Positions 1-20,136 of a DNA stretch of 20,783 nt are shown piece by piece. The notes below the pieces were generated by a model. The model did no database searches, was not told the origin of the DNA, and saw only the letters and a list, made by a program, of their open reading frames with translations. The stretch is from Yuukianura sp. NJ FZ-2021. Its lineage: Eukaryota. The stretch lies in contig JAJCTO010000018.1 of assembly GCA_046563655.1 (NCBI GenBank), positions 124,001-144,783 of the forward strand, written 5' to 3'. Within the stretch, counting starts at the first letter, position 1; each line of letters starts with the position of its first letter. The translations under genes and the position numbers were made by a program.

Positions 1-119
1 AACAACACAAAATTAAACAACATTTGACCTCAATTTTTGGCTACTCTGTCACTCAATGATAATTAAACTGCGTAATCCTCAATGTAAAATGGGTGTTGAG
101 TAAAAGGAGAGTGGCGTAC

Positions 120-1110
120 CTGGAATGGAGATGACAGACAAGGGTGCTGGTCTCCCTTTGCCCACCATTTTGAGTTCAACTCCAATCAAGCACCGATCAG
201 CATTAGGAATGGAAATGTACTTGAAGTGCTGCGACTCCTTGACTGCTGGGCATTTCTTCAGTTGAGCATCCAACAGAGCCAGAAGAGCACAGTTTCTGAG
301 GACGAAGAAACCACAAGAGTGGGATGGTTGAAAATCGGCGGATTCCGTCACTGTAGGCGGGAGAGTGACAGCATTTCGCCTCAGCAGAACATCCCAGTCG
401 ATGCGGAAGGGAAAAGCACACTTGAGCAGCACCAAATTAGGCCGCTTCGCTGGAGGATACCTAAACAAACATTAATTTTCATGTTAACAAACCGATTAAA
501 TAAAGTACAAATACAAAGAAATAAATAAAGTTACACTCTTTGTAATCCTCTTTGAGTTTAGCTCAACGACGGAAATACTGTACCTGAAGTACGTTTCTTT
601 AGCTTTGTCTCCCTGGAGCTGTGCTTCCGTTTGACCAAAGAGTGAGTCTGGTTGAGGGAGATGAGCAGAATGAACAGAACCAAACTCCAACACATGATTA
701 TCAGCATCTCGAAGTCCAAATGGCCGAACACATCTGATGGACAACATCAAGGAAATCATAAAGTGGAATGTATAGAATTAATTCTTAATTAATTGTTGTT
801 AATTAATTGATGTCGAATGTGTTGAAGTGAGGTGATACCTGTATGAGAGAGCAATCCAGAAGGCGAGTGTCCATCCTCGTGGCACAATCAAGTCCCACCC
901 ATTCCCCTCTTCCTTGATCAAAACAATAGGCACTTGGTTTTCATCCTCCCCAAGGTCCAGTTCGGATCCTGTAAAAGTCATTGGACTTCAAGTCAAACAT
1001 TCATTCTACATGTTCAAATGTTCATTTTTGTACCTGGAATGAGGAGTTGAGCTCTGCGTCTGCTTAGCTCAACGTCGCTCATCTTCTCTCCCAAAATACG
1101 CTCTCTGACG
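120..1110 (-). CDS. POP1: POP1 (RNase P/MRP subunit) 3'-half fragment, copy 1. Exons ~1110..1034 (5'-truncated), 968..839, 733..584, 460..120; the last exon lies off-window
   Basis: The spliced translation ..EKMSDVELSRRRAQLLIPG-SELDLGEDENQVPIVLI..GWDLIVPRGWTLAFWIALSYR-CVRPFGLRD..PQPDS..YFR-YPPAKRPNLVLLKCAFPFRIDWDVLL matches the conserved POP1 POPLD-region motifs (GWD.I.P.GW..AFW, PPAKRPN). All introns are GT-AG and phase-compatible. No N-terminal POP1 exons are present upstream. Confidence 0.9.
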
Positions 1111-1136
1111 GGTTAGGTCTCTAACCTAACCTAACC
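1111..1136. repeat. Short head-to-head telomere-type junction GGTTAGG-tct-CTAACCTAACCTAACC (copy 1)
   Basis: Read directly from the sequence. It lies exactly where POP1 homology stops and the orphan ORF ends. GGTTAG/CTAACC can form a small hairpin. Confidence 0.85.
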
Positions 1137-2439
1137 ATTTTCCTTGAGGGCTGTTTGAATGGCACCTGCTTGGACGCTTCCAAGTTGCAAAATTTGTAGC
1201 GTAAACTCTTGGTCCTTTCTTTCTCGTCTTGCATTTTTCAAGGTGACTTTCAACCATTTCCTTTGATTAACTTTCTCATTAATTTCAAGAGTGCACCCTT
1301 TAATGTTCTCCTTGCACGAGGCCTCTCTCTTTTTTAAGTCTTGGATCCTATCTTCGATGGCTATGAAGTCAGCGGTCTTTTCAGAAACAGAACCTCCATG
1401 ACTGTGTTGAAGGGGGAGCAACTGGTTAGGATTCACTGCAATTTCTATAACAGATGCATCGACTTCATCATTTGGAACACGTTCGGAGCCTTTCGTACTT
1501 CCGCGATGACTGTTTGCCTTCAACGAACGTTTAATTTGCTTGGATGTGATGCTGCCCACTGGACGATTTGTTCACCGCTTTACATTTAAGTTGAACATGA
1601 GCCAAGCATCTGGAGTGCAAATAGACTGGACAGATTCTGAACGCCCAAAAATGTTGAGAAGAGGTGATGGTAATACAAGCGGTGAAGCCCAGATGCCGTT
1701 TTGCAATTCGTCCGGTTGGCTCAAGACGAGAGCTACGGACTTCATTCCTTCTTCGCCAATTACTTCAGTAAGGCGTGGTTTATCGTAGCGTAGATTCAGG
1801 GAATCTAAAAACAACAAGCATGGATTAGTCCACATTTGTATGGTAAATGCTTTCAAAATGTTGAAGTAACAGGCTTACAATAGAGTTTGACCAAGAACAG
1901 AGCAAAGTACCCTTTGGAGTACTGATCCTTGATCATCGAATTGACTCCTCGTAAAAGCTGCTTAGCCTCGGTTCCTAACCCCTTGATTAGATTTGTGCCG
2001 TATTGAGTTGCACAGTACTCCTCCAGCGATGGTACTTCCTGAAGTGCGTCGGGACCAGCAAATCGTTCAGTAAGTTTGTACCGGTTTGGCGGCCTGTAGG
2101 AACCACCTTGACTAGCGCTGGCAAACTGCTTGATTCGGAAAAACTGCACTCCAAAATGGCTTGGTTTCTGCTGTCTTGATGTCCAGAAGTTTGTTCCAAT
2201 CTTTCAAAGGCAATAAGCAATCGCTAGGTTCATCAAGGCCATCGCCGAGCAAATCAGCAACTACACATAGTAGTAAATCCGTCGGTATTCCTAGGGCTGT
2301 AAATAAAAGACGCGTGTTTTCCTGCGCCGTAGCAAAATCCGATAGTGTAAATGGTGTCAGCTGCTCCTAAAAATTAGAAACAAAATTTACTTCAACTAGT
2401 ACATAGCCAGGTATTTCTACATGTCGAGCTTACCATCAT
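1131..2439 (-). pseudogene. Unknown spliced gene with C-terminal coiled coil, copy 1 (frameshifted). Predicted exons 2439..2434, 2366..1879, 1804..1584, 1517..1131
   Basis: ATGATG|gtaagc donor and tttttag|GAG acceptor. The predicted 67, 74 and 66 nt GT-AG introns remove the apparent frame break at ~1856 and the TGA at 1572. The A5 run at ~2139-2143 is 2 nt shorter than in copy 2 and breaks the frame (could be a homopolymer sequencing error). Heptad-like segment IEDRIQDLKKREASCKENIKGCTLEINEKVNQRKWLKVTLKNARRERKDQE. Confidence 0.65.
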
Positions 2440-2595
2440 TCTAAAATTGTTCCAATTTGACGACAGCTAACCTAAAACACAAAAGTGTAAGGGCAGCATT
2501 AGACGTGGTACACTTGGTTAAACGGAAAGAAAAATGAAATTAGATATTGTTTCCACAATTTCCCAGCTTACCGCAAATAAAGTAAAGGGAAGGGC

Positions 2596-2610
2596 TTAGG
2601 TTAGGTTAGG
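2596..2610 (+). repeat. (TTAGG)3 interstitial telomere-type repeat upstream of the orphan gene (duplicate at 16385..16399)
   Basis: Seen directly. TTAGG is the ancestral arthropod telomeric repeat. Confidence 0.85.
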
Positions 2611-2644
2611 GTATTCACTAACTTGATGTAGGTCGAAGTTAGGT

Positions 2645-3412
2645 TAGTTTGACTTTTTATTTTTGATCCTTTGTTTATTTCGAAAAAGTTGCGTTGCTAA
2701 TAGCAATTTCGATGACTGAACGCAATTGTACGGAACGAATCGGACTAAATGGTACAGCGTAGTTTAGTTATTAGTTAAAAGAAATGTTGAAAAACTGCCC
2801 AACCTGAACTTGAAATTAGAGTACATTTGACAACCAAATGTTGAAATTGTACCCAAAGTTCAATTTCCTTGATTTTTCATGCATTTTGGATAGGTACAGC
2901 GTTGCCGCTTTTCGTAAAAATTTCTTTCGGGTAGGTCGCAGCCTGTGCCGACCCAGCCTTCTGTCATTGCGACTTTGTCAATTGTACGAGAATTTTCTTG
3001 AAATATTTCGGATTAATGCTTTAGTATTTGCAAAACTAGTCTCTGTTTTAAAAACTTGACAAAATTTGACATCGCCTGATATTAGAATCGCCCGAAAATC
3101 CTTTTGCCAACACTCTGAAATCAGGGATTGAAAATAAAAACTTATCTTCGGCCACGAGGCAAAGGACGGAAAACCCAACTACGCAAAGTTGCAAAATTAC
3201 GTTTTATCGATTAAAAGAAAGATCCACATCCACAGCTGGGCATTACGATTTCAATCAAAATATTTTTGTTAATTTGTTATTTTTATCAGTAATTAATTTC
3301 GCAGTAATTTAATAAATTACGGCAACAAAAATTCCGCTCCATTTTCCCCTGTAACTGAATTTTGGGTGAGAAAATGCAATCAACAAAGGATCAAAAATAA
3401 AAAGTCAAACTA
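2645..3412. mobile_element. Non-autonomous TIR element (MITE-like, 768 bp) with perfect 31-bp terminal inverted repeats
   Basis: tagtttgactttttatttttgatcctttgtt (2645..2675) is the exact reverse complement of aacaaaggatcaaaaataaaaagtcaaacta (3382..3412). The interior is AT-rich and non-coding. The outer TA could be a TA TSD or part of the TIR; superfamily unresolved. Confidence 0.85.
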
Positions 3413-4360
3413 TAGTCAAGAGTTTCAGATTTCCTAAATTGGGAGCAGAGCTGATTCCATTAAGGAGCAGATACACTTCTTCGAGAGTTGAATAAGTGTA
3501 GACCAAATGTTCCAGAGTTTTTGGGAGGCTAGCCAGTAAACAACCGAGGTTTGTTACATTCTTCATAAAATTATTGTTTGCGGTCAGCCCAACTTCCACA
3601 AGCTTCGTACGTGCAGGGAAAGTAATTTTTCACATAGAGTTCCCCTCCGCTTCATTTTCTTCGTCACGTGACTCCGGAATCACAAATACTTCCAAGTCCT
3701 TCAGCGGGGTCACAATCCTTTACAAGAATTTCACGCTGATTGCTTCTATGTTGATTGTCTTGATTTATTGTCGATTTGCATCGCAAAACCGAGTACTAAA
3801 TTGTTGCAAGTTAATGGGGTTGGTCGAGCCAGCAAAATGAACTGTAGTAACTTAGGAGCCAAGCGCTTTCGGTTAGGATTTCCGTTGAAAAACGAAGTAG
3901 GGCCGTAAATGACTTTGATTGAGCCCTTCTGCTCCGCTTTCGTTTTTATTTTCCTTGCACCGTCTTCGTCATCAACATCCTCCAAATAAATAGAACATTT
4001 CGCTTACTACAATCAGCTGGGCCACAATGAGTCACATGCAAGCGTTGTATTGCATTAGTTTTTCCTACTACCTTATGCATTACACTGCACACTTTGACAT
4101 TACCTCAGTCGTATTTTTTTTCGGTACAGAGCTTCGGGTCCAATGTCGCCGTCCAATTTGTACCTAGATTGGCGAATTCTGCTGCGATGGACCCTGGTCA
4201 GGTTAGAGTTCATCGTCTGACAAGTCTACACTCTACAGCTTCCACAAAATTTTCTGATGTTCGTTCCTGCTTCAGTATTATAACGCCGTCGTCATCGTTG
4301 GTATCTCCTTTGGCAAACGATGTCAGTATCCCAAGACATTCCTGCTGCCGCTCGTGACAT
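3413..4360 (-). pseudogene. LRR-like gene family copy A (3'-truncated at the TIR element, frameshifted). Exon 1 4360..4104, exon 2 3979..3413
   Basis: Homologous to copy D: ATG TCA CGA start, GAG|gtaatg donor, peptide pieces DVDDEDGARKIKTKAEQKGSIKV and TNLGCLLASLPKTLEHLVYTYSTLEEV split over different frames. Confidence 0.8.
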
Positions 4361-4560
4361 TGTGCTAAATGCTGATGGAAGCTCTAGGAAGTCGGTGTTC
4401 AAACAAAACCAAGCAACAGCGGCATGGTTAAAGTACAACATACAAAACAATGGCAATTGTCATAAATAAACCTGGGTTGCAAAATTACATGAGTCGGAGG
4501 TGCAATTACCATTTCATGTTTCATTTTCCAAATTTTAATCGCCAGGCCTTACCCTAACCG

Positions 4561-5472
4561 CAGAGACAGTTCTTCTTTGTGTTCATCATCATCACTATCG
4601 TTCGATTCGGTTTTCTCAATAGTCAAGATTTTCAGACTTTTCAATTTCTGGAGAAGAAATGATTCAATTGAGGAGCTGCTCGACTTCTTGGAGACTTGAA
4701 TACGTGTAGGCAAAATGGTCTACAGTTTTCGGTAGGCTGACCAGTAAGCCGCCACCGAGGTTTGTTGTGTTCTTGAAAAAATGCTTGTTTCCGGTTAACA
4801 CAACTTTCACAAGCTTCATACGTGCTGGGAAAGTGAATTTTGAGCTAGAGTTATCCTCCGCTTCACCGCGTTTTGTTCAAGTGACTCTGGAATCACCAAC
4901 GCTCCCAATTCCTTCCGCCGGGTGGCTATCTCCTTCAAGAATTCGAAGTTGATTGCATCTACGTTGATTGTCTTGAATTTTTTTCGATTAGTATCAGAAG
5001 CGAGTTAATTGAGGCAAGTTAATCGGTCTCGATCCAGCAAAATGAGCTGTAGTAACTGTGGAGCCATACTTTCGGTTAGGATTTCCGTTGAAAAGCGAAT
5101 GCCATAAATGACTTTGATTGAGCCCTTCTGCTCCGCTTTCGTTTTTTCTTTGCTTGCACCGTCTTCGTCATCAATATCCTGTAAATAAATAGAACCTTTA
5201 ATTTTACACAATCAGCTGGTTCACATACTAGCGTTCGCTTACATCAGTTTTTACTGCTACCTTGTGCATTACATTGTACACATTGACTCAGGCGTAATTT
5301 CTTTCGGTATAGAGTTTCGTGTGAAATGTCGCGGTGCAATTTGTACCAAGGTGGGCGAATCCTGCTGTGATGGACCCTGGTCACGGTAGGGTTCATCAGT
5401 ATCGTCGCGCAAGTCTACAGCTTCTACAAGTTTCGGTATTACAAGGTCGACGTTGTCGCTGGTATTTTGCAA
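4561..5472 (-). pseudogene. LRR-like gene family copy B (fragment truncated at both ends, frameshifted)
   Basis: Peptide pieces VEAVDLRDDTDEPYRDQGP..APRHFTRNSIPKEITPE and QDIDDEDGASKEKTKAEQKGSIKV are homologous to copy D. The exon-1 donor is lost, and the fragment abuts the 3' end of copy C at ~5475. Confidence 0.8.
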
Positions 5473-5475
5473 GAT

Positions 5476-7991
5476 GTGCTAAAATCAGCTTCTTCAGCCC
5501 CATTAGGTGCTCAATGCCATACTCCCGTCTGCGCAGAATGGCATCATCGATGGTCGTCTGTATCCAAATGGGAAGTTCGATTCCTTTGTCTCGAATGAAC
5601 TCTTGAAAAACGTCGTTGTTTCTGTTTTCTAGTTCCAGGAGCTTAGTGAGGCTTTATGCTGGATTCACATTACAAAGCAACTCGCAGACTTTATGCTAGT
5701 TGCAAGTTGTCACAGTTTTCTGCTTTATGCGAGTTGCGTGTTCACACTGGGCCTTTTCTCGAGGCCCGAATGATAAGGAAAGTCGCGGGCAGACGCTTCA
5801 AAGGAGGCACATCAAAAGTCGCCTTTATATGTGAACGCTTTCACTTCGGGCATAGGGGAAGACATGCAGTTTCTGCCTTACAGCTTCGTTTGACGAAGCT
5901 CACAAAATCTTGTCTGCGCAGCACTTTTTGGAGCAGATTTTCTGCCACATTTTTGTGAGTGTAAGCAGCAGCCACAACTCCTTTCCGCAGAAAAGCCCGT
6001 AACTTTTGCTAAAATTTTCTGCACATTCCAATCTCTAGTGTGTGCATTAGGATGTTGCGTGTGTTAGGTTGCAATCTCGAGTTGCGGTGTAATGGGAATC
6101 CAGCATTAGTCGTCTCTGATTGGCAGATGGTCTCGCTTAGGAAACAAAGCATCTTCCAGCGTTCCTATGAAGTCATACGCTGTTTTCAAACGTAAGGTTT
6201 CACAGGAACAATTCACTTATGTAATGAAAAAAGTATCGTAGACATTCCTCAGTTGGATACTTCATGGTAATTCGTTTCAACGCGGGAAACATTTTACTAA
6301 TGTTAAGCATAAACAATTGGTCTTGAATGGTATGAGGAAGTCTGAGGTTACGAACGAAATTGAATTTGTAAAATTCGGAGTTAAAAACTTCTGGAGACGT
6401 AGGTATTTGCATTGTCTGTCCAGTTGCTGCAAATATGAAGTGTCTTTAACTTTGGGAACTGCGATAGCTGGATCCTGTCGATATGATTTGAATTCCCGAG
6501 ACATCCGAGAGACAAGCTTTTCAGAGTTGGAGTTGCACAAAATGAAATGTTTATGTCGGTCGTTCCTACTTTGTCCAAGGAAATGACGTGGCCATATTGC
6601 ACTACATTTTGTGCACCAACATGTCCCCTGGCTAAGTCGTCGTCGCTGCCACTACCGCGGTCGTCTTCATAGTCGTCTGATTCGATGAATCTTTCAGTTT
6701 CTTGGAGTTCATTCCCACTTCCATTTCCTATGTGAAAAGTCCTCACTTGAGCCATCTTCGGGACATGACATTTGACTTGGTTGTCGGCTATGCCCACTCC
6801 TTGCCAGTTTCCCGCGATAGTAAAATGTCGCAGAGTTGGAGAAAATTTTGATAACGTCGATGTCAGATCCATTGCGTATCTTCCCATATCCCGCATTTTA
6901 ATTCTAACCTTGCTAACGCGGGAAGATTCACATTGGTGATCGATAGAATTTGTTTGCGATGCAGTGCAAGTTCTTCTTTGTCGTCTTAAACGTTTCACTC
7001 GATTTTCTAAATAGTTAGAAGCTTCATATTCTTCAAATTCTGAGAAGAATTGATTCCATTGAGGAGCTGATTGACTTATTGGAGATTTGAGAAAGTGTAG
7101 TGTACACCAATTGGTCTAGACTTTTTGGGAGGCTAGCCCAAGGTGGGTAAACAAACAAAGGCTACACCAGGTTATTCAGTAAGCAACAGGTTTGTTGCGT
7201 TCTTCAGAAAGTTATTGGTTCCGTTAAGCACAACTTTCACAAACTTCGTATGTGCAGGGAAAGTGAATTTTGAGCTAGGGTTATCCTCCACTTCATCGTT
7301 TTGGTCACGTGGCTCTGGAATCACCAAAACTTCCAATTCCTTCAGCCGGGTCGCAATCTCCTTTAACATTTGGAAGTTGATTGCTTCTACGTTGATTGTC
7401 TTTATTTTTTTTTTGATTAGCATCTCACAAGCGAATAAATTGAGGCAGATAGATCGGTCTCCATCCAGGAAAATGAACAGTAGTAACGTTGGAGCCAATT
7501 TTTCGCTTACGATTCCCTTTGAAAAACGAACTTAAGCTGGAAATGACTTTGACGGAGCGCTTTTGTTCCGCTTTCGCTTTTCCTTTGCTTGCACCGTCTT
7601 CGTCATCACTAACCTGTAAATAATAGAACATTTCATTTTCCACAATCAGCTGGGTCACATACAAGCGTTATATTGCATTAGTGTTTCCCACTTTACGCAT
7701 ACATTGTACACATTGAAATTACCTCAACCGAGATCTTTTTCGGTATAGAACTTCGGGTGAAACCCGAATTCGGGCGGTCCATTCTGTACTGCGGTTCGCG
7801 AATCCTGCTGTGATGGACTCTGCTCACCACCGGGTTCATCAGCATCGTCGGACAAGTCTACAGCTTCTACAGCAGTTTCCGGTTGTTGTTCTTGCTTCAC
7901 TATTACGACGTCGTCCTCATCGCTGGTATCTGCCTGGCGACCGTTGTCGGTATTCGAAGACGTTCCTGCTCCCTGCTGTCGGTGGTGACAT
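5476..7991 (-). pseudogene. LRR-like gene family copy C (near full length, multiple frameshifts, MITE inserted at 5657..6105)
   Basis: ORF fragments 7425..7664, 7172..7498, 6381..6998 and 6200..6412 are collinear with the copy D protein (LKEIATRLKELEVLVIPE, SPTLRHFTIAGN, FPKLKTLHI, MFPALKRITMKYPT). The upstream region 8000-8400 matches 11750-12110. Confidence 0.85.
5657..6105. mobile_element. PIF/Harbinger (Tourist-like) MITE, 449 bp, TTA target-site duplication
   Basis: ~28-bp TIRs tgctggattcacattacaaagcaactcg / cgagttgcggtgtaatgggaatccagca (3 mismatches), with TTA on both sides (5654..5656, 6106..6108). Paralogous empty sites at ~9520 and ~12525 have a single triplet at this position. A TWA TSD is the Harbinger signature. 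Confidence 0.85.
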
Positions 7992-9398
7992 TGTGTTGAA
8001 TGCTGATGGCAGCTCTAGGAACACGAAGTCGGTGTTCCAACAACAAAAAAACAAAAGCGACATGGTAGAAAATACTAAGCAATGGCAATTGCAATAATCT
8101 GGGGTTACAAAATTGCATGAGTCGGAGGGCCAATTGCCATTTCATGTTTCATTTTTTCAATTTTTATCGCCATTCTAACTTCTCAAGTTTTGCATTTCTC
8201 AATTTGCAGAGGTTTTCTATCCTTTACACTACGTATATGTTGCAGGGTCAGCAAAATGATTCTGACTGACGTTTCAAATTTATGAAATTTATGGCTGGCG
8301 TTTTATTGACGCTTTATGACGCGATTCCTTGTCACAACACGGCATTTTCTTGAAATTCAAAATTTTTTCACATTTTCTACTATTTCGAATGCAACTTTCG
8401 AAATTTTTTTCCCAAGAGGTTCTGCCGCTTCTGACTTACATCAAAATGTTGCCATGAACGATGAGATTACGTTTTGCTGAATTTCCTTGGGGCGTTCATC
8501 TGAAATTTAAAATCCTGAGCAGTTGAAGTTGGACTGCATGAATTTTTTGAATTTGACATTGTGAAATGCACGGACAGGTCCCGACGCTGAAGCCGACAAG
8601 GAACGTGCTGAATGAAACAACAATCGAAGTTCCGCCAGCACATGCTGCGCCAGTAGCCAAGGAAGTTGTCACTTGCAAAACTCTAAATTACCTGAAATCT
8701 AAACTAAAATTTTGCGCTTACCATCACACAAATTGAATTTAATTAAAAATAAAGAACATGTCAAGGTCAACATTGCCAATTTCCTATTCAAAACTCCAAA
8801 TTCTATTGAGCAATTAATCTTCTTCGAAAAATTACACTGGAAAAGGGAAAACTACGTTTAAATTCCCCAAAATTAAATCTCCATACATTACTTTGTCACA
8901 CCCTAACATTTGTTTTGAATAATCACGTTAGGTTTGACCAAGGCTCCTTTTTTACCCTTATGGCTCCTGTTTGACATCCCTCTTCACCTCATGTCTAACT
9001 TTGTTCCCAAATCATCGCTTGACGTGGAACTCAAGCGGGCTCCTCCGTCTTGACTTTCTTGATTTGTCTGTCCCTGGCAAAGTTGCGTTTTACCCTCTTC
9101 TTACTGTTGGATTCAGCCACAGTACTGCCAGCATCTTCAAAGGCATCTCCGGCCTTGCGCTTCCCCTCCTTACTCCTGGATCCTATTGGTTCCAATTTAA
9201 AATACCGATCCAACAACTTGTCGTCAAACTTGTACTTCCAGAATCCGATTCTGCAATGTTGATCAAATGTTTGCTATGGATGTTTATGTGAAACTTTATT
9301 TAACGGAATTTTGGCCGGTTTCTTGTTTAGATTTTCCAGACTCATCATCTTGAGCCCTCTCAAGTGCTCCAATGCCATACTCCCGTCCGTGCAGAATG

Positions 9399-11744
9399 TC
9401 ATGATCGATGATCAACTCTGCCGTCTGCCCAAATGGCAACTTCAATTACTTTGTCACGAATGAATTCCTCTAAAACGTCTTGGTTTTGAGCGTTTTTTAG
9501 TTCCAGGAGTTTAATGAGACTGTACTCGTCTCCGATAAGTGGAAGGTAACGTTGAGGAAACAGAGCATCTTCCAGCATCCCATGGACATCAAATGTTGTT
9601 TTCAAGTGTAGTGTTTCCACGAAATAATTGGCTATGCCATGAAAAAAGTATCGGATACATTTTGCAGTTGGGTACTTCATGGTGATTCGGTTCAAAGCGG
9701 GAAACATTTTACGAATGTTAAGCATAAAGAATTGGTCTTCAACACTGGTGCTAATTGAGTGAGCGCCGCTCGAGCGAGCGGCGCTCATCATCTGCTGCAA
9801 AAAATTTTACCGCTCCGCTCCCGCCCGCTCCCTCGTCCGCATCGCTCCCGCTCCGCTCAGAGCGGTCATAAAACTTTAACGACCGCCCGCTCCCGCTCTC
9901 TCATGTGTTAACATAGGAGCGGGCGGAGCGAAGAGCGCCGCTCTTCACCAATTTTTGGCTTCGTTGCGCTCCCGCCCGCTCTTTCGGAAAATTTTTGTGC
10001 ACCGCTCCGCTCCGCTCTCCGAGCGAAGAGCGGAGCGGTCACCGCTCTTCTAAAGAGCGATCGCTCTCAAAAGAGCGGCGCTCTCTCAATTAGCACCAGT
10101 GGTCTTGAATGAAATCAGGAAGCCGGAGGTCACGAACGAACTTGAATTCGTGTAATTCGGAGTTATATGCTTCCGGAAAAGTTGGGATTTGAATTGTCAC
10201 GGTCCAGTTACTGCGAATATGAAGCGTCTTCAACTTTGGAAACATGGATGGTTGGATTCTGTCGATACGAATTGAGTTTCCGATAGACAAACGTTTCAGA
10301 GTTGGAATTGTAGCGAATGAAATTTCTATGTCAGTCGTTCCTGCTTTATCCAGAGAAATGACCTGGTAATCTTGTTCATTTTGTGCACCGTCGTCGTCGT
10401 CGCTGTCACTACCGCTGTCGTCTTCATAGTCATCAGATTCGATGAATGTTTCAGTTTCAGTTTCTTGGACTTCATCCACGCTTCCATTTCCCATGTTAAA
10501 AGTCCTCAATTGGGCCATCTTCGGGACATGAAATTTGACTTTGTTGTCGGCCAAGTCCACTCCTTGCCCGTTTCCGGCAATCGTGAAGTGTCGCAGAGTT
10601 GGAGCAAATTTTGGCAAGAGAGTAGTCAAATCCATTGCCTTCACATCCTCCCACATGCCGCACTTTAATTCTAAACTTGCTAATGCTGAAAGACTCAAAT
10701 CCACAATCGACAGAACTTGTTTACGATGCAGTGCAAGTTCTTCTTTGTCGTCTTCATCCTTCGACTCGATCTTCTGAATAGTCAAGAGTTTTAGATTTTT
10801 CAAATTCGGAAAAGAATTGATTCCATTGAGCAGCTGATCGACTTCTTGAAGGCTTGAGTAAGTGTACACCAAATGGTTGAGCGTTTTCGGCAGGTTGGCC
10901 AGCAAGCAACTGAGGTTTGTGGTGTTCTTCAGAAAATTATTGTTTCCATTAAGCACAACTTTCACAAGCTTCATACCTTCAGCGAAAGTCAATTTTGAGC
11001 AAGAGTTCTCCTCCGTTTCATCGTTTTGGTCACGTGACTCTGGAATCACCAACACTTTTAATTCCTTCAGCCGGGTCGCAATCTCCTTCAAGATTTGGAA
11101 TTTGATTGCTTCTCTTGTCTTGATTTTTTGTCGATTATTATCGCAGAAGCGAATAAATCGGGACAAGTTAATCGGTCTCGATCCAGGAAAATGAACTGCA
11201 GTAGTAACCTTGGAGCCAAGTTTTCGGTTACGATTCCCGTTGAAAAACGAACTAAGGCTGTAACTGACTTTGACTGAGCCCTTCTGTTCCGCTTTTTCTT
11301 TACTTGCACCGTCTTCGTCATCACCATCCTGTAAATAACAGAACATTTCATTTTCCACAATCAGCTGGGTCACATACAAGAGTTGTTATTGCATTAGTTT
11401 CTCCTTCCTTAGTAATATGTACTAGGTACAATGTATGCGTAACGGATCCTTACGCATACATTGTACCTACATATTGCCATTACCTCAGGCGAAATTGTTT
11501 TCGGTATAGAGCTTCGGGTGAAACGTCGCGGTACAATTTGTATCGGGGTGGGCGAATCCCGCAGCGGTGGACCCTGGTCACGGCCGGGTTCATCACCATA
11601 AGTATCGTCGGACAAGTCTACAGCTTCTACAGCAGTTTCCGGTTTTTGTTGCTGCTTCAGTATTACAACGTCGCCGTTATCGCTGTTATCTGCTTGGCGA
11701 ACATTGTGAGTATTCGAAGACGTTCCTGCTGCCGGTCGTGACAT
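9399..11744 (-). pseudogene. LRR-like gene family copy D, the best preserved. Exon 1 11744..11484, exon 2 11328..9399 interrupted by a MITE; ~607 aa if the MITE and one TSD are removed
   Basis: ORF 11409..11744 splices (CCTGAG|gtaatg..ttatttacag|GAT, phase 0) into the 429-aa ORF 10090..11379, which continues in frame into 9399..9734 once the insertion is removed (..FIQD|QFFMLNIRKMFPALNRITM..). Repeated LxxLxL-type motifs (LKELKVLVI, FPNLKNLKLLTI, PTLRHFTI, PTLKRLSI, FPKLKTLHI) suggest an RNI/FBXL-like LRR solenoid. No clear F-box seen. A possible further 3' exon remnant lies at ~9031..9250. Confidence 0.8.
9743..10101. mobile_element. hAT-like MITE, 359 bp, 29-bp TIRs, 8-bp TSD, interior filled with GAGCG/CGCTC pentamers
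   Basis: cactggtgctaattgagtgagcgccgctc / gagcggcgctctctcaattagcaccagtg (1 mismatch). Flanks are gtcttcaa (9735..9742) and gtcttgaa (10102..10109). The empty site with a single gtcttgaa is in copy C at ~6320. An 8-bp TSD fits hAT, but P and Merlin are not excluded. Confidence 0.9.
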
Positions 11745-12277
11745 TGGGCTGAATGCTGGCTGATGGAAGCTCTAAGGAGTCGGTGTTCAAACAAAAACAA
11801 ACAAAACCGGCATGGTACACGTACAAACTACAATGGCAATTGCAACAAACCAACCGGGGTACATGAGTCGGAGGGCCAATTGCCATCTCATGTTACATTT
11901 TGTCAATTTTTATCCCCATTGTAACTGTTCAAGTTTTGCATTTCTCAATTGCATGGTTTTGTGTTTTGTACACGCCGTAAGTTGCAGGGTCGGCAAAATG
12001 ATTGTGACTGACGTTTCATGTTTATGACTGGCGTTTTATTAACGTTTTTTTATAAAGCGACCCTTTGTCACAACACGGCATTTTCTTGAAATGCAAGAAT
12101 TTTTGGTTACATTATCGTTTCAGGGGCAGTGAAAAATTTTTTTTGGTCAAAATTTTCGAAAAATTTTTTTTTCGATTTTTTCACTTTGTATCATGTTTCA
12201 AACGTTTTTAGAACGTTTAGAGCAAAAAATTTTTCCTGACCCCAAGGGTCCCCCTTTCCCATTTTTTTGAGAATCGG

Positions 12278-13130
12278 GATGTTTATGTGAAATTTTGGTA
12301 TTCAACGGAATTTTGACCGGTTTCTTGCGGAGATATTCCAGATTCACGTTCTTGAGCCCTCTCAAGTGCTCCAATGCCATACTCCCGTCCGTGCAGAATG
12401 TCATGATCGATGATCAACTCTGCCGTCTGCCCAAATGGCAACTTCAATTACTTTGTCCCGAATGAATTCTAGAAAAACGTCCTCGTTGTTTTCGGCGATG
12501 TTTAGTTCCAGGAGTTTAGTGAGACTGCAGTCGTCTCCGATTAGTAGAAGGTATCGGTGAGGAAACAGAGCATCTACTAGCATCCCTTTGAAGTGAAATG
12601 CTGTTTTCAAGTGTAGTGTTTCCAGGTGAGAATTGGCCATGCCATGAAAAAGTATCGAAGACATTTCGCAGTTGGGTACTTCATGTTTTTCGTTTTAAGG
12701 CGGGAAACCATTTTATGAATGTTAAGCATTACAAATTGGTCTTTCTTGAATGAAATCAGGAAGCCGGAGGTCACGAACGAACTTGAATTCGTGCAGTTAA
12801 ATGCTTAAGGAGACGTTAGAATTTGCATTGTCAGTGTCCAGTTGCTGCGAATATGAAGTGTCTTTAACTTCGGGAACATCGATGGCTGGATCCTCTCGAC
12901 GTGAATTGAATTTCACGTGAAACAAAGTTTTCAGAGTTAGAATTGAAGAAAATTAAATTTCTATTTCAGTCGTTCCTATTTTGTCCAAGGAGATAACCTA
13001 GCGATCTTGTACCTTTTCTTCGCCAAATGTCCCCCAGCTGAGTCGTCGTCGCTGTAACTACCGCAACCTTCATAGTCGTCTGATTCGACGAATCCTTCAG
13101 TTTCTTGCACTTCATACACGCTTCCATTTT
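12278..13130 (-). pseudogene. LRR-like gene family copy E (3' part only, frameshifted), immediately downstream of the POP1 3' UTR
   Basis: The ORF 12401..12664 ending EFIRDKVIEVAIWADGRVDHRS* has the same ending as copy D. Homology to 10110-10490 continues to ~13130. Confidence 0.8.
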
Positions 13131-13294
13131 CCTCCATCTCCCCAAAATCACTCTCAAAACAATACTTTTAGTAGGAAGTATTTATAAATATTCAATCATG
13201 TCATTAATTGAACCAATAACACTATTGAATATTTACAACATTCCAACTTACACCAACTTAACAAGTTACAAAAGTGGAATAATTCCAGTCTGGA

Positions 13295-14897
13295 TTAGAA
13301 ACAGTCTTTGAAAATGTGGACTTTGGCTTGCCTGTACTGGAGACTGTTGGAACAATCCCTCAGCAGAACAACGTCCTTCCTCTTCCAGCAGTTGACCTTG
13401 TCCAGAAAGTGGGCGAGTCCAGCGTAGGTGACATAGCCAAGGGCCCTCCCTTTCCCCCCGCGCAGTCCCTCCCCACCTAGGGTCACAAATCCAATGGGGG
13501 TTCTGGACATGCTGTCCAGGGCAGCTCCAGCATCCACCTCACACAGCGATTGCACCTCTTCGTTGAATTCCCGCACAAAGGGAGTGGAGTCGTAGTGTCC
13601 AACCTCTGCCGCTCCCTCTGCTTGTTTCCGCAGTTTGCGGCGCTTCTTGCGCAGAAAGGCCAAGTCCTTCTGATGCTTTTGTCGAAGTTCCTTTCTCTTC
13701 CGTCCAAGGTTGTGACAGGGGCTGGGGGGCTCTGTCGTCTCACTCCGCTTGTCACCAACATCACTCTCATCTACAACAACACCAAATTATACAACATTTG
13801 ACCTCAATTTTTGACTACTCTGTCGCTCAATGAGATAATTAAACTGTAGTTATGGAATCCTTAAAAAATGGGGGTTGAGTAAAAGTGAGAGTGGCGTACC
13901 TGGAATGCAGATGACAGACAAGGGTGCTGGTTTCCCTTTGCCCACCATTTTGAGTTCAACTCCAATCAGGCACCGATCAGCATTAGGAATGGAAATGTAC
14001 TTGAAGTGCTGCGACTCCTTGACTGCTGGGCATTTCTTCAGTTGAGCATCCAACAGAGCCAGAAGAGCACAGTTTCTGAGGACGAAGAAACCACAAGAGT
14101 GGGATGGTTGAAAATCGGCGGATTCCGTCACTGTAGGCGGGAGAGTGACAGCATTTCGCCTCAGCAGAACATCCCAGTCGATGCGGAAGGGAAAAGCACA
14201 CTTGAGCAGCACCAAATTAGGCCGCTTCGCTGGAGGATACCTAAACAAACATTAATTTTCATGTTAACAAACCGATTAAATAAAGTACAAATACAAAGAA
14301 ATAAATAAAGTTACACTCTTTGTAATCCTCTTTTTGAGTTTAGCTCAACGACGGAAATACTGTACCTGAAGTACGTTTCTTTAGCTTTGTCACCCTGGAG
14401 CTGTGCTTCCGTTTGACCAAAGAGTGAGTCTGGTTGAGGGAGATGAGCAGAATGAACAGAACCAAACTCCAACACATGATTATCAGCATCTCGAAGTCCA
14501 AACGGCCGAACACATCTGATGGACAACATCCAGGAAATCATAAAGTGGAATGTATAGAATTAGTTCCATTCTTAATTAATTGTTGTTAATTAATTGTATG
14601 TTGAATGTGTTGAAGTGAGGTGATACCTGTATGAGAGAGCGATCCAGAAGGCGAGTGTCCATCCTCGTGGCACAATCAAGTCCCACCCATTCCCCTCTTC
14701 CTTAATCAAAACAACAGGAACTTGGTTTTCATCCTCCCCAAGGTCCAGTTCGGATCCTGTAAAAGTTATTGGAGTTCAAGTCAAACATTCATTCTAAATC
14801 TTCAAATGTTGATTTTGTACCTGGAATGAGGAGTTGAGCTCTGCGTCTGCTTAGCTCAACGTCACTCATCTTCTCTTCTAAAACACGCTCTCTGACG
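13295..14897 (-). CDS. POP1: POP1 3'-half fragment, copy 2, including the natural C-terminus. Exons ~14897..14821 (5'-truncated), 14756..14627, 14515..14366, 14240..13900, 13770..13295
   Basis: Same POPLD motifs as copy 1, plus the terminal exon RTPIGFVTLGGEGLRGGKGRALGYVTYAGL..VVLLRDCSNSLQYRQAKVHI*, matching the POP1 C-terminal domain (GFVT.G..S...G.G.ALG.V...VLLR....LQYR.A). There are no stops or frameshifts, and all introns are GT-AG. 381 aa from the internal ATG at 14869. Confidence 0.92.
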
Positions 14898-14923
14898 GGT
14901 TAGGTCTCTAACCTAACCTAACC
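14898..14923. repeat. Head-to-head telomere-type junction (copy 2), identical to 1111..1136
   Basis: ggttaggtctctaacctaacctaacc seen directly. Confidence 0.85.
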
Positions 14924-16228
14924 ATTTTCCTTGAGGGCTGTTTGAATGGCACCTGCTTGGACGCTTCCAAGTTGCAAAATTTGTAGCGTAAACTCTTGGT
15001 CCTTTCTTTCTCGTCTTGCATTTTTCAAGGTGACTTTGAACCATTTCCTTTGATTAACTTTCTCATTAATTTCAAGAGTGCACCCTTTAATGTTCTCCTT
15101 GCACGAGGCCTCTCTCTTTTTTAAGTCTTGGATCCTATCTTCGATGGCTATGAAGTCAGCGGTCTTTTCAGAAACAGAACCTCCATGACTGTGTTGAAGG
15201 GGGAGCAACTGGTTAGGATTCACTGCAATTTCTATAACAGATGCATCGACTTCATCATTTGAAACACGTTCGGAGCCTTTCGTACTTCCGCGATGACTGT
15301 TTGCCTTCAACGAACGTTGAATTTGCTTGGATGTGTTGCTGCCCACTGGACGATTTGTTCACCGCTTTACATTTAAGTTGAACATGAGCCAAGCATCTGG
15401 AGTGCAAATAGACTGGACAGATTCTGAACGCCCAAAAATGTTGAGAAGAGGTGATGGTAATACAAGCGGTGAAGCCCAGATGCCGTTTTGCAATTCGTCC
15501 GGTTGGCTCAAGACGAGAGCTACGGACTTCATTCCTTCTTCGCCAATTACTTCAGTAAGGCGTGGTTTATCGTAGCGTAGATTCAGGGAATCTAGAAACA
15601 ACAAGCATGGATTAGTCCACATTTGTATGGTAAATGCTTTCAAAATGTTGAAGTAACAGGCTTACAGTAAAGTTTGATCAAGAACAGAGCAAAGTACCCT
15701 TTGGAGTACTGATCCTTGATCATCGAATTGACTCCTCGTAGAAGCTGCTTAGCCTCGGTTCCTAACCCCTTGATTAGATTTGTGCCGTATTGAGTTGCGC
15801 AGTACTCCTCCAGTGATGGTACTTCCTGAAGTGCGTCGGGACCAGCAAATCGTTGGGTAAATTTGTACCGGTTTGGCGGCCTGTAGGAACCACCTTGACT
15901 AGCGCTGGCAAACTGCTTGATTCGGAAAAAAACTGCACTCCAAAATGGCTTGGTTTCTGCTGTCTTGATGTCCAGAAGTTTGTTCCAATCTTTCAAAGGC
16001 AATAAGCAATCGCTAGGTTCATCAAGGCCATCGCCGAGCAAATCAGCAACTACACATAGTAGTAAATCCGTCGGTATTCCTAGGGCTGTAAATAAAAGAC
16101 GCGTGTTTTCCTGCGCCGTAGCAAAATCCGATAGTGTAAATGGTGTCAGCTGCTCCTAAAAATTAGAAACAAAATTTACTTCAACTAGTACATAGCCAGG
16201 TATTTCTACATGTCGAGCTTACCATCAT
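14918..16228 (-). CDS. Unknown coiled-coil protein gene, copy 2, open frame. Predicted exons 16228..16223, 16155..15666, 15591..15371, 15304..14918 (367 aa)
   Basis: Exon lengths 6+490+221+387 = 1104 nt with consistent phases (0, 1, 0). Translation MMEQLTPFTLSDFATAQENTRLLF..KPFWSAVFFRIKQF..ALKENG*. The third intron has a weaker acceptor and is inferred. No recognisable family. Confidence 0.65.
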
Positions 16229-16611
16229 TCTAAAATTGTTCCAATTTGACGACAGCTAACCTAAAACACAAAAGTGTAAGGGCAGCATTAGACGTGGTAC
16301 ACTTGGTTAAACGGAAAGAAAAATGAAATTAGATATTGTTTCCACAATTTCCCAGCTTACCGCAAATAAAGTAAAGGGAAGGGCTTAGGTTAGGTTAGGG
16401 TATTCACTAACTTGATGTAGGTCGAAGTGTTCATCCAACCTCGTTCATCGAAATTCAATGAACAGGCGTTAACGATGTACTGTATTTGATGAACACTAGA
16501 AAATCGACAGCTGGATTCTAGGCACTAGAATAGAGAGTTGCAACCTAACCTAAATTCAATGAACAGGCGTTAACGATTTACACTATTTGATGAACCACTA
16601 TTTGATGAACA

Positions 16612-16815
16612 CTCGAAAATCGACAGCTTGATTCTCGACAGTAGAAAAGAGACAGTCCCAATTTCCGACAGTGGAAAATCGACAGCTCGACAGTAGAAAA
16701 TCGACAGCTTCACTTCCGACACTAGAAAGTCGACAGTCCCATTCTCGACAGTAGAAAAGAGAGTAACAATTTCGGACATTAGAAAAGAGACAGCTCCATT
16801 CTCGACAGTAGAAAA
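16612..16815. repeat. 29-30 bp satellite, first block (continuous with 17915.. before the insertion)
   Basis: Units such as gacagtcccaatttccgacagtggaaaatc / gacagcttcacttccgacactagaaagtc. Confidence 0.9.
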
Positions 16816-17914
16816 CAAGGTAGGGCGATGCTCAAGGTTGACCATTGGTCTTCTGGAGGTAGTTGACAATTGATTCGACTTAAACCGGCCTGCCTCAAAA
16901 CTGTACAAGAACTAAGAAACCGTTTTCATGTAGTTGATGCACCAAAACGTCTCTCAAAGTTTTCAGTGCGAATGTGAGGTCCTACTTTGTGCATAAGTTG
17001 CACCAAGTTATACAATAGCAAAACCGTTTGCACTTTGAACGTTTTAAACGCTTGAAATGCTTCAGCGTAAAACAGGTGCACTGAAATTTTGTGTGTAAGC
17101 GATAATACCGGCGAACTATGCACAATTATTGCTTCCAACTGTGCACAACATGCGCATAATATACTTCCAATGTTGCCATGACAATGCCGTAGCATAAACA
17201 GGGTTAAATAACTCTATCAAAATAGTGTTGTTGAAATTAAAACAATAATAATTATTATTGTTGAAATTCAGTAAACAAAATTCACATAAGGCACGGTAGT
17301 TACGGTGAATGTTGCCATGACAATGCAGTGGCAAAAAAAGAACGTAAGCCAAACGGCATCAAAATAATGATATCAAAATTATTGAGCTTTGTGCATAATG
17401 CACAAAATTGAACGTTGATGAGTATGTGTCGAATATCCCTTCTTCTACATTGAAAAAGTTATTAAGCCGAAAATCGTTGGTTTATAATTAAAATTATAAA
17501 AAATTCTAGTAAATGCAAATTTGACCCTTGTTATGCACTATTCACATATTAAACATTTAAGCCGGATTTTCTACCTTCTGATAAGTCTTTATTTAACAAC
17601 GTAATTAAACATAATGCCAGAAAATGAGCAGATCAAAACATCGTTGTTAAAAAATATTTTGAGTGTAATGCAGACCTAACACAAAATTTTGACGACTTAA
17701 GAAACAGCAACGCGAAGCAGCCGCATACTTTGGCGTTGTTAATGTACGACTTTGAGTGCAATGTAGACCTATGAAAACTCTAGAGCCATACATAACCCCC
17801 GGGCAACATGGAGCTTGAGTTTTAGTGCAAAAGATACTACAAAAGCGAACGGACAGACAAAGTCGTATCAATAGTCTTCTTCAGCACGTCGTAGACGTGC
17901 GTCTCCAGAAGACT
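16816..17914 (-). mobile_element. Probable non-autonomous Helentron (DINE-1/HINE-like) element, ~1.1 kb, inserted in the satellite
   Basis: Asymmetric 11-bp subterminal IRs gtcttctggag (16848..16858) and ctccagaagac (17903..17913). Terminal palindrome agtcttct..gcacgtc-gta-gacgtgc..agaagact (17873..17914), and a weak hairpin near the other end (~16823..16833). Inserted in an A/T run of a satellite unit with no discrete TSD. Confidence 0.65.
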
Positions 17915-19153
17915 AAAAGGACAGTCCCAATTTCCGACAGTAGAAAATCGACAGCTTCATTTCCGACATTAGAAAGTCGACAGTCCCAATCTCGACATTT
18001 GGAAAGAGACAGTAACAATTTCCGACACTAGTAAGTCGACAGCTCCATTCTCGACAGTAGAAAAAAGACAGGCCCAATTTCCGACAGTAGAAAATCGACA
18101 GCTTCATTTCCGACACTAGAAAGTCGACAGCGACAGTCCCATTCTCGACAGTTGAAAAGAGACAGTCCCAATCTCGACATTTGGAAAGAGACAGTAACAA
18201 TTTCCGACACTAGTAAGTCGACAGCTCCATTCTCGACAGTAGAAAAAAGACAGTCCCAATTTCCGACAGTAGAAAATCGACAGCTTTATTTCCGACACTA
18301 GAAAGTCGACAGTCCTATTCTCGACAGTCCCAATTTCCGACACTAGAAAATCGACAGCTTCATTTCCGACAGTAGAAAGTCGACAGTTGCAAGGTTAGTT
18401 AACCTAACCTAAATCCAATGAACAGGCGTTAACGGTGTACTGTATTTGATGAACACTTGAAAATCGACAGCCCCAAATTCCGACATTAGAAAATCGACAG
18501 CTTCATTTCCGACACTAGAAAGTCGACAGTGCCAATTTCCGACATTAGAAAATCGACAGCTTCATTTCCGACACTAGAAAGTCGACAGCTCCATTCTCGA
18601 CAGTTGAAAAGAGACAGTCCCAATTTCCGACAGTAGAAAATCGACAGCTTCATTTCCGACACTAGAAAGTCGACAGTCCCAATCTCGACAGTTGAAAAGA
18701 GACAGTAACAAGTTCCGACACTAGTAAGTCGACAGCTCCATTCTCGACAGTAGAAAAAAGACAGTCCCAATTTCCGACAGTAGAAAATCGACAGCTTCAT
18801 TTCCGTCACTAGAAAGTCGACAGTCCCATTCTCGACAGTTGAAAAGAGACAGTAACAATTTCCGACACTAGAAAATCGACAGCTGCACTGTCGACCGTAG
18901 AAAAGAGACAGTCCCAATTTCCGACATTAGAAAGTCGACAGTCCCATTCTCGACAGTAGAAAAGAGACAGTAACAATTTCCGACACTAGAAAGTCGACAG
19001 CTGCACTGTCGACCGTAGAAAAAAGACAGTCCCAATTTCCCACATTGGAAAATCGACAGTGGCAATTTCCGACAGTAGAAAATCGACAGCTGCAGTATCG
19101 ACCGTAGAAAAGAGACAGTCCCAATTTCCGACAGTGGAAAATCGACAGCTTCA
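17915..19153. repeat. 29-30 bp satellite (two ~15-bp GACA-containing half-units) with a 147-bp five-unit higher-order repeat; interrupted at ~18388..18457 by a TTAGG-containing module
   Basis: The unit start gacag(t/g)cccaatttccgac recurs at 17920 and 18067, and at 18613, 18760 and 18907 (147-bp steps). The array is rich in TCGA/GTCGAC. Confidence 0.93.
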
Positions 19154-19182
19154 TTAGGTTAGGTTAGGTTAGCCTAACCTAA
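19154..19182. repeat. (TTAGG)3TTAG-CCTAACCTAA head-to-head telomere-type motif closing the satellite
   Basis: Seen directly at the exact end of the array. Confidence 0.85.
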
Positions 19183-19289
19183 TTTCAGTAATTAATAATT
19201 AGCAATTTGAAGTTAAACTTTGAAGGAAAGTTACGTTTGAATGAGAATAATTATACTTAAGAAGTAGTTAGAATCAGGAACTACGGCCT

Positions 19290-19511
19290 CTAAAGTTAGG
19301 AGGAATTTATCGTAAGATAGGAGCTCCTAAAGGTTCGAAAACATGGGAGATCTTCAGTAGGGTTTTCCCCTAGCCCAAGTCCCTACTTAGGACTGTCATA
19401 GGATTTCCTACCAAAATCTGGGAACTTAGGAAATCCTAGAGGAGTCCCATTTTTTGTCCTAAATAGTTAGGATTGGCCTAACTTAGGATTCCTAACTTTC
19501 GAAGAACCCTG
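19290..19511 (-). mobile_element. Diverged inverted partial copy of the adjacent element's left end (ends ..gaaccctg)
   Basis: Reverse-complement similarity to ~19509..19740, e.g. aacttaggaaatcctagaggagtccca vs tgggactcctctaggatttcctaagtt, and ctaaagttaggaggaattt vs aaattcctcctaactttag. Confidence 0.7.
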
Positions 19512-20136
19512 GGCTGACATTTTGGTACGAAAGTTAGGATGTCCTAAGTCACGCCGATCCTAACTATTTAGGAGAAAAGATGGGACTCCTCTAGGATTTC
19601 CTAAGTTGCCGTATTTTGATACGAATCCTAGGACTGTCCTAAGTCTGGAGTTGGGCAATGGGAGATAGGTACTTAGGATCGCCCATATTTTGGTAAAGAT
19701 AGGATTTCCTATCTTTGTCAAAATTCCTCCTAACTTTAGGGTCGGTCTTTCCACGTCCTAAGTCAATCCTAACGATTACTTTATAATGTAAATGTACATT
19801 TATGTGAAAGTTTGACTTCAAATCAATATACTATACTTATATATAATGTACTAATGCAATAATCATTAATTAATATGCATTAATGAATACATTAATGTAC
19901 TATACTATACTATATAATACAATAATTATATTTAATCATAAGCTTTTAATTATTTATAGGAATATTTTTTATTAATAGTAACTATTTAACAGTATTTTAA
20001 AATCCGATAAGTTGTGTTAAAACTTAGGAGGTTCGGGGATCCTATCTTTACCAAAATCTGCTTTGTCCTATCTGTTCCTAAGTTTGGTCCTATCTTAAAG
20101 TTAGGACGTCCTAAGTGTACCAAAATGTCAGCCCTG
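19509..20136. mobile_element. hAT-like MITE (~628 bp) with 20-bp TIRs, TTAGGA/TCCTAA subterminal repeats and an AT-rich core
   Basis: ctgggctgacattttggtac (19509..19528) vs gtaccaaaatgtcagccctg (20117..20136), 1 mismatch. A CAGGG-type end is typical of hAT. No TSD is visible because the left end is fused to the inverted copy. Confidence 0.75.

Follow-up and report, generated by a model that had tools for sequence, protein, structure and literature searches.

Does a telomere repeat lying between two gene fragments act as the splice donor of a new gene, or is it the scar of mended chromosome ends? The question is posed by a 20,783-nucleotide (nt) stretch of contig JAJCTO010000018.1 from Yuukianura sp. 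NJ FZ-2021 (hereafter the window, to whose full length all coordinates refer), eukaryotic DNA in which GT-AG introns are short and the TTAGG telomere motif recurs in many short runs. On its minus strand, along which the gene model was read, a fragment of an orphan gene abuts the 3' half of POP1, a protein subunit common to RNase P and RNase MRP (human structures 6ahr and 6ahu; PMC13184271). An earlier note on this DNA had described the two pieces as co-oriented and abutting, as the exon coordinates bear out, and had proposed that exon shuffling fused them into a chimeric gene through a splice donor formed by a TTAGG repeat. Here we describe the join as two opposed telomere-type runs, and we consider it probable that a double telomere scar unites two gene fragments within a recombining, duplicated, subtelomere-like patchwork, the frame that runs across them being a by-product and not a selected gene.

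Opposed telomere-type runs at the join

The DNA structure of the join and the anatomy of the scar are seen directly in the letters. Read along the plus strand, the POP1 fragment ends at 14897 and is followed by GGTTAGGT at 14898-14905, by CT at 14906-14907 and by CTAACCTAACCTAACC, which is (CTAAC)3C, at 14908-14923, after which the orphan fragment begins. The G-strands of the two runs meet head to head, each fragment carrying telomere repeats at its own 3' end, and the opposed telomere-motif runs stand at the border between unrelated sequence blocks. TTAGG is the arthropod-type telomere repeat, and TTAGGTTAGG occurs 11 times in the window versus 0.02 expected from 100 shuffles. What the earlier note had seen as one TTAGG repeat is indeed a telomere-type repeat that supplies the candidate donor, but it belongs to a pair of opposed runs and is not a single repeat. 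Judging from the letters, the last G of orphan exon 4 (14923) may itself be derived from the repeat. Among the titles and the beginnings of abstracts that we surveyed, no published telomere repeat serving as a splice donor was found, which does not disprove that one exists elsewhere.

The same opposed design recurs twice within the window, at 18390-18412 (GGTTAG, TTAA, CCTAACCTAA) and at 19154-19182, where (TTAGG)3.8 stands directly against CCTAACCTAA. Single telomere runs mark other block borders, at 16385-16399, 16542-16553 and 2638-2647, and a satellite array of 29/59-nt units, at 16570-16815 and 17920-19148, is both interrupted and bounded by runs of the telomere motif. The orphan block is itself capped by telomere repeats at both sides, like a tiny linear molecule.

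The most economical mechanism would be telomerase extension by one to three repeats followed by end joining, repeated across the region. A duplicated copy of the POP1 locus would have broken inside an exon, after 14897, and telomerase would have added GGTTAGG to the broken POP1 3' end, while the orphan fragment's own 3' end would have gained about three repeats; the two extended ends would then have been ligated, meeting head to head across a filler of 2 nt. The joined unit would later have been duplicated about 13.8 kb away, and sequence would have been exchanged with other copies thereafter. We infer this order, telomerase first and end joining second, as well as any transcription of the unit and the lack of function of its product. 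Exon shuffling, the origin put forward in the earlier note, we do not uphold: the join sits at opposed telomere runs, as do other block borders, and the fusion of telomerase-extended ends appears the better reading. A GT in the repeat could still splice the orphan fragment to POP1 exon 5 and give a product of 731 residues, because the fragments happen to be co-oriented and matched in phase. The features on which the argument draws are collected in Table 1.

Table 1. Features of the fusion model, of the join and of the duplicated unit, in window coordinates; exons are numbered 1-8 along the model
Feature	Position	Strand	Remarks
Putative first coding exon (exon 1), ATGATG then GTAAGC	16223..16228	-	least certain part of the model; splice context same in copy 1; start codon inferred
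Orphan exon 2, 490 nt	15666..16155	-	inside a 171-residue stop-to-stop open reading frame; no Pfam match
Orphan exon 3, 221 nt	15371..15591	-	no Pfam match; identical to copy 1
Orphan exon 4, 382 nt	14923..15304	-	truncated by telomere run; coiled-coil-like
Telomere-type run	14908..14923	-	reads GGTTAGGTTAGGTTAG on the minus strand; holds candidate GT donor 14922-14921 and TAG 14920-14918
Opposed telomere-type run GGTTAGGT	14898..14905	+	at the break of POP1; separated from the other run by the filler CT (14906-14907)
POP1 exon remnant holding the break	14821..14897	-	native donor at 14820; intronic in the chimeric model
POP1-derived exon 5, POPLD start	14627..14756	-	POPLD profile positions 1-21
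POP1-derived exon 6, POPLD middle	14366..14515	-	POPLD profile positions 18-72
POP1-derived exon 7, POPLD end and POP1_C start	13900..14240	-	POPLD 69-92; human POP1 residues 688-712 and 852-878
POP1-derived last exon (exon 8), natural stop, POP1_C	13295..13770	-	PF22770 match; human POP1 residues 954-1022 of 1024
(TTAGG)3	16385..16399	+	closes the orphan block on its other side; points outward as a chromosome end would
Copy 1 of the unit	1..2639	-	cut by the window edge; 97.6% identical to 13775-16428; same junction; exon 2 frameshift
GTTAGGTTAG	2638..2647	+	exactly where copy 1 stops matching copy 2

The two fragments and the frame across them

The eight exons of the model add up to 2196 nt and to a single open frame of 731 residues that ends at the natural POP1 stop (13295), with GT and AG at every border of the seven introns. 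The candidate fusion intron (14922-14757) would be 166 nt long, joining a phase-1 donor to a phase-1 acceptor. We recomputed the exon arithmetic, phases and intron length given in the earlier note and all of them agree, so that the in-frame spliced product it envisaged is possible on paper, as a candidate only. Its alternative ending was also seen: if the GTTAGG donor is left unused, the frame stops at the TAG at 14920-14918, inside the repeat, after 367 residues. Eight open reading frames (ORFs) of at least 146 residues are present in the window versus 0.19 in shuffled sequence, and an Rfam scan of the window gave no match.

An open frame across the join is to be read against chance. We estimate that a join that is both co-oriented and matched in phase arises about one time in six, because co-orientation has a chance of 1/2 and a phase match of 1/3; only the first GT of the repeat precedes the in-frame TAG, and it must match the phase of the acceptor. 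Given this prior, the open frame taken alone is weak evidence. The donor itself is the weakest-looking of the set, with T at position +3 where the seven others of the model have A. From the orphan stop to the 3' end of POP1 neither AATAAA nor ATTAAA was found, so an orphan transcript, if made, would probably run into POP1. A stop codon upstream of spliced introns usually triggers nonsense-mediated decay, and a transcript carrying the 367-residue stop, with introns downstream, would therefore probably invite it.

The identity of the POP1-derived half rests on its last four exons, which match POPLD and POP1_C and reach residue 1022 of the 1024 of human POP1. POP1_C (PF22770) was recognized on the last exon with E 6.5e-20 and 72.5 bits against a cut-off of 24.3, covering profile positions 39-173, with positions 1-25 on exon 7; in a search of PDB sequences the last exon matched human POP1 residues 954-1022 (E 5.1e-5). 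Exons 5, 6 and 7 match POPLD (PF08170) collinearly, each piece below threshold (15.1-23.5 bits versus 26.8) because introns split the domain and the scan was done exon by exon. The N-terminal POP1 domain, which we take to be PF06978, had no match at E <= 0.01 among the 126 stop-to-stop ORFs of at least 60 residues in the window. Judged by these matches the piece represents POP1 by its 3' half only and does not amount to a POP1 gene, and the earlier note's description of a fragment that keeps POPLD and the C-terminal region and lacks the N-terminal domain holds good.

Contigs from four DNA runs (X1-X4, of which three come from one sample and the fourth carries another organism label) were aligned to 12800-17200. 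In all four runs, contigs over the POP1 part leave the window right after 14897 and continue into 147-255 letters of different sequence, and one X3 contig reaches 3.9 kb further. In the 30 letters past 14897 given for the contigs listed, which we read by hand, the POP1 frame goes on without a stop. A full-length parental POP1, which continues upstream, thus appears to exist elsewhere in the genome, as the earlier note had expected, and the break that created the fragment would have fallen within an exon. In X1 the k-mer depth is 200-228 over the POP1 3' part versus 51-59 over the orphan part, which suggests that the POP1 3' half is present in more copies than the orphan block. In X3, a run of the same sample as X1, parental POP1 contigs are present and no orphan contigs were seen.

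The orphan half consists of consecutive ORFs of 171, 100 and 146 residues that are joined in frame through introns of 67, 74 and 66 nt, and we take it, from its letters, to be the 5' part of a gene, amounting to roughly its first 1.1 kb of coding sequence and interrupted by three short introns. Its larger homology searches covered exon 2, and exon 3 was compared with Pfam alone. On exon 4, Pfam gave only sub-threshold coiled-coil families. A word-index search of exon 2 against longer proteins found no relative, a weak negative since the last exon of POP1 likewise drew a blank; the lineage may be poorly represented in that protein set. Searched with phmmer against 1.84 billion representatives, exon 2 had three matches, all to internally repetitive proteins and each made of 7-14 short stretches, which we judged to be artefacts and not homologues. 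In a protein atlas, exons 2 and 4 scored 0.82 and 0.86 against generic coiled-coil clusters, values that, being below 0.9, serve as leads only. The earlier note's designation of an unknown gene fits these results, no credible relative of the orphan exons having come from the Pfam, word-index, phmmer or atlas searches. From the start codon to the next telomere run upstream there are 157 nt, and a 9-mer of the motif stands at 16256-16264, 28 nt upstream of the start; by our estimate chance alone yields about 0.8 such 9-mers per window. The promoter of the orphan gene may or may not have been carried over with the fragment. We also considered the block at 14908-16399 as a DNA transposon with telomere-like terminal inverted repeats and rejected it: its flanks differ and show no target-site duplication, the letters beyond 16399 do not take up the parental POP1 where the fragment leaves it, and no family of transposases turned up.

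Divergence between the copies and the competing explanations

The unit, of about 2.65 kb, occurs twice at 97.6% identity. In copy 1 the junction is preserved, and so is each of the 14 splice borders that belong to exons 1-7, with the GTTAGG donor standing at 1136 and the acceptor at 968. To this extent the counterpart junction that the earlier note placed in copy 1 stands; the open frame does not, because the loss of 2 nt from a T-run within orphan exon 2 (the equivalent of 15926-15927) splits the ORF, and a frame uninterrupted across both parts is present in copy 2 only, where it spans the 731 residues. The telomere-type run at which copy 1 stops matching copy 2 (2638-2647) is read, from its position, as a break-and-heal scar later than the duplication.

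Several observations speak against regarding the fusion frame as a by-product. The homopolymer deletion of copy 1 is absent among the contigs listed from the four runs, and an assembly error is possible there. Between the copies, 12 of the 20 exon substitutions are synonymous versus an expected share of about 0.23 (binomial P ~1e-3, p = 0.25), with 6 of 11 in the orphan part (ratio of nonsynonymous to synonymous divergence, dN/dS, 0.24) and 6 of 9 in POP1 exons 5-7 (dN/dS 0.15). In orphan exon 2, six of the nine substitutions are synonymous in the annotated frame versus none to four in the five other frames. In the POP1 part, eight insertion or deletion events fall in 425 intronic nt versus none in 621 exonic nt (Fisher P = 7e-4), and substitutions number 15 in introns (3.5%) versus nine in exons (1.45%; P = 0.035). 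Taken with the 14 of 14 splice borders kept in copy 1, the synonymous excess and the indel-free exons form the pattern expected of a constrained, working chimeric gene.

The distribution of the differences leaves room for another source of this pattern. In the orphan part, coding and non-coding divergence are alike (11/1099 versus 3/406). Copy 2 differs from an X3 contig by two letters over 13883-14897, but by 24 letters and two gaps over 13153-13882; the differences listed in exon 8 are 15 synonymous and eight not, with a synonymous divergence (dS) of 0.15. Copies 1 and 2 differ throughout the POP1 part, and they show no difference in 15928-16427, yet dS reaches 0.14 in 15667-15861. A third version of the orphan part, present in X1 and X2, has nine different letters over 15289-15521. 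A simple history of duplication and divergence cannot explain so mosaic a divergence, and sequence must have been exchanged among copies, the partners of the exchange probably including, on the pattern of differences, the functional parents. The synonymous excess could accordingly have been imported from functional parent genes by gene conversion; the divergence signal shows that both halves derive from real, constrained coding sequence, and it does not show constraint on the chimera itself. As a further observation, 15667-15927 and its counterpart in copy 1 (1880-2138) differ by nine substitutions and the 2-nt indel within 260 nt, with an edge at most 2 nt from the exon 2 donor; the adjoining intron, 74 nt long, holds a single difference, and over the next 500 nt upstream the copies agree completely. 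This dense stretch looks like a conversion tract whose edge lies at an exon border.

With these data we weighed the explanations of the locus together. Were it a working young chimeric gene, transcribed from upstream of the orphan fragment and using GTTAGG as 5' splice site onto POP1 exon 5, its 731-residue product would carry POPLD and POP1_C behind a new N-terminus and might dock on RNase P/MRP partners or compete with POP1. Such a gene would account for the open frame with GT-AG at all borders, for splice sites that are all conserved in copy 1, for POP1 exons that indels avoid and for the synonymous excess in both halves; the collinear coverage of POPLD by sub-threshold pieces, the retention of POP1_C and the missing polyadenylation hexamers, which would probably let an orphan transcript enter POP1, are in keeping with it as well. 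It is nonetheless an unlikely account, faced as it is with the frameshift of copy 1, with a donor that has T at +3, with a constraint signal that gene conversion could have imported, as the mosaic divergence indicates, with the equal coding and non-coding divergence of the orphan part and with a region that is a patchwork of break scars and satellite; that the fusion protein is functional we hold to be correspondingly doubtful. A bolder form of the same idea, in which the telomere scar has been recruited to serve as a functioning splice donor, with an alternative stop, and has created a young multi-copy chimeric gene under selection, seems to us quite improbable. Under it, a lineage-specific N-terminal module would stand before POPLD and POP1_C, the protein would engage partners of RNase P/MRP or titrate them, and the synonymous excess and indel-free exons would be the mark of selection on the chimera. 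POP1 is also a component of yeast telomerase, by which the chimera might conceivably be linked to chromosome ends. It figures in a paper on the yeast telomerase holoenzyme (PMC7619062), but we treat the meeting of a POP1-telomerase link with a telomere scar as coincidence.

It is likewise quite doubtful that the orphan fragment works alone, as a 367-residue protein to which the telomere repeat contributes the last residue and the stop codon, with the POP1 exons as a 3' untranslated tail or dead remnant. The frame that ends at the TAG, the frame-specific synonymous excess in exon 2 and the three introns of 66-74 nt with GT-AG borders agree with such a gene, but several spliced introns follow the stop, the usual trigger of nonsense-mediated decay, only 157 nt (28 nt if the 9-mer at 16256-16264 is a scar) remain upstream, so that the promoter may be missing, and copy 1 is frameshifted here too. 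An assembly artefact, in which a mis-join, or two haplotypes placed in tandem, would have produced the junction or the two-copy arrangement, we regard as highly improbable. Among the contigs listed none bridges 14863-14923 and contigs stop exactly at 14923; no orphan contigs were seen in X3 and X4, where gaps in contig data prove nothing, and the best word shares among the runs are 0.82 and 0.76, not 1. Short k-mer contigs are, however, expected to break at repeats, and the contig listing is partial (275 records beyond those listed); there is no N in the window, and the junction is the same letter for letter in two copies that differ by 2.4% elsewhere and must have been read from different molecules. 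We therefore keep to the join of two fragments by a double telomere scar, with the frame as by-product: against selection on the fusion stand the frameshift of copy 1, a donor that alone among eight lacks A at +3, and the chance of about 1/6 that any such join is in frame.

Subtelomere-like surroundings and known parallels

Repeats and broken genes lie on both sides of the unit. Within 16542-16570 and within 18400-18425 a CCTAA-type run is followed by a near-identical motif (ATTCAATGAACAG and ATCCAATGAACAG), which looks like a double capture of one chromosome-end sequence, and a loose end of X1 at 16451 shows the same pairing of run and motif at a third place. In the bin 16769-16915 the X1 k-mer depth is about 15,000, and the repeat there must therefore be very abundant in the genome. 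At 3400-13150 the minus strand carries a tandem array in which at least four paralogous units, with 76-87% identity, follow one another at intervals of about 3.7 kb; one of them begins at about 13135, 160 nt downstream of the POP1 stop. The family has an acidic N-terminus and a weak leucine-rich-repeat match, and several units have broken ORFs; its longest ORF, of 431 residues (10093-11385; LRR_4, E 7e-4, below cut-off), had no relatives in the word-index search, which missed POP1 too. Short tracts of CCGCT and GAGCGAGCGCCGCTC-type microsatellites lie at 9757-10085, inside this array. Past the last telomere scar, at 19257-19772, AT-rich DNA holds a nested inverted repeat with arms of 149 nt (71% complementarity) and 84 nt (88%), which by its form may be a foldback or MITE-like (miniature inverted-repeat transposable element) element.

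The closest analogue of the locus is the human DDX11L family, in which a rearranged part of DDX11 is spread over many subtelomeres and transcribed, and whose authors propose subtelomeric regions as a source of new genes (PMC2705379). Both cases involve a rearranged portion of a housekeeping gene that has GT-AG introns and possible ORFs and that lies, in several copies, in telomere-adjacent DNA next to telomere-associated repeats. They differ in that DDX11L has spliced expressed sequence tags and reverse-transcription PCR products (PMC2705379), whereas the unit in the window is known from DNA alone; here, moreover, the fragment is fused in frame to an unrelated gene piece, and the join is a telomere-repeat scar. 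Head-to-head telomere arrays mark interstitial telomeric sequences of the fusion type, such as human 2q13-2q14 (PMC6410037), where opposed arrays likewise lie at an end-to-end join of two DNA ends. Unlike that example, the arrays in the window are only 8 and 16 nt long, join gene fragments of kilobase scale in place of whole chromosomes, and recur several times within 20 kb. Short telomere-like insertions at repaired double-strand breaks, and neotelomeres, provide a third comparison (PMC8537989, PMC10705422), similar in having short telomere-like repeats at break sites; those short insertions are described as single stretches, whereas in the window both joined ends carry repeats. As for the protein, the C-terminal domain of POP1 in human RNase MRP wraps the RNA with other subunits, and an N-terminal motif is placed near the catalytic centre (PMC13184271). 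Unlike human POP1, the piece in the window has neither the N-terminal POP1 domain nor that motif, and a protein with only the back half of POP1 could at best bind part of the complex.

If the fusion were expressed, the locus would plainly exemplify a gene born of chromosome-end repair, in which letters added by telomerase supply both a splice donor and an alternative stop codon, and in which an essential ribonucleoprotein scaffold has been partly duplicated and given a new head. Even unexpressed, it records at base resolution how DNA ends carrying one to three repeats were joined head to head and the product then copied, and it is relevant to the way in which gene pieces are reshuffled in the subtelomeres of organisms that have TTAGG telomeres.

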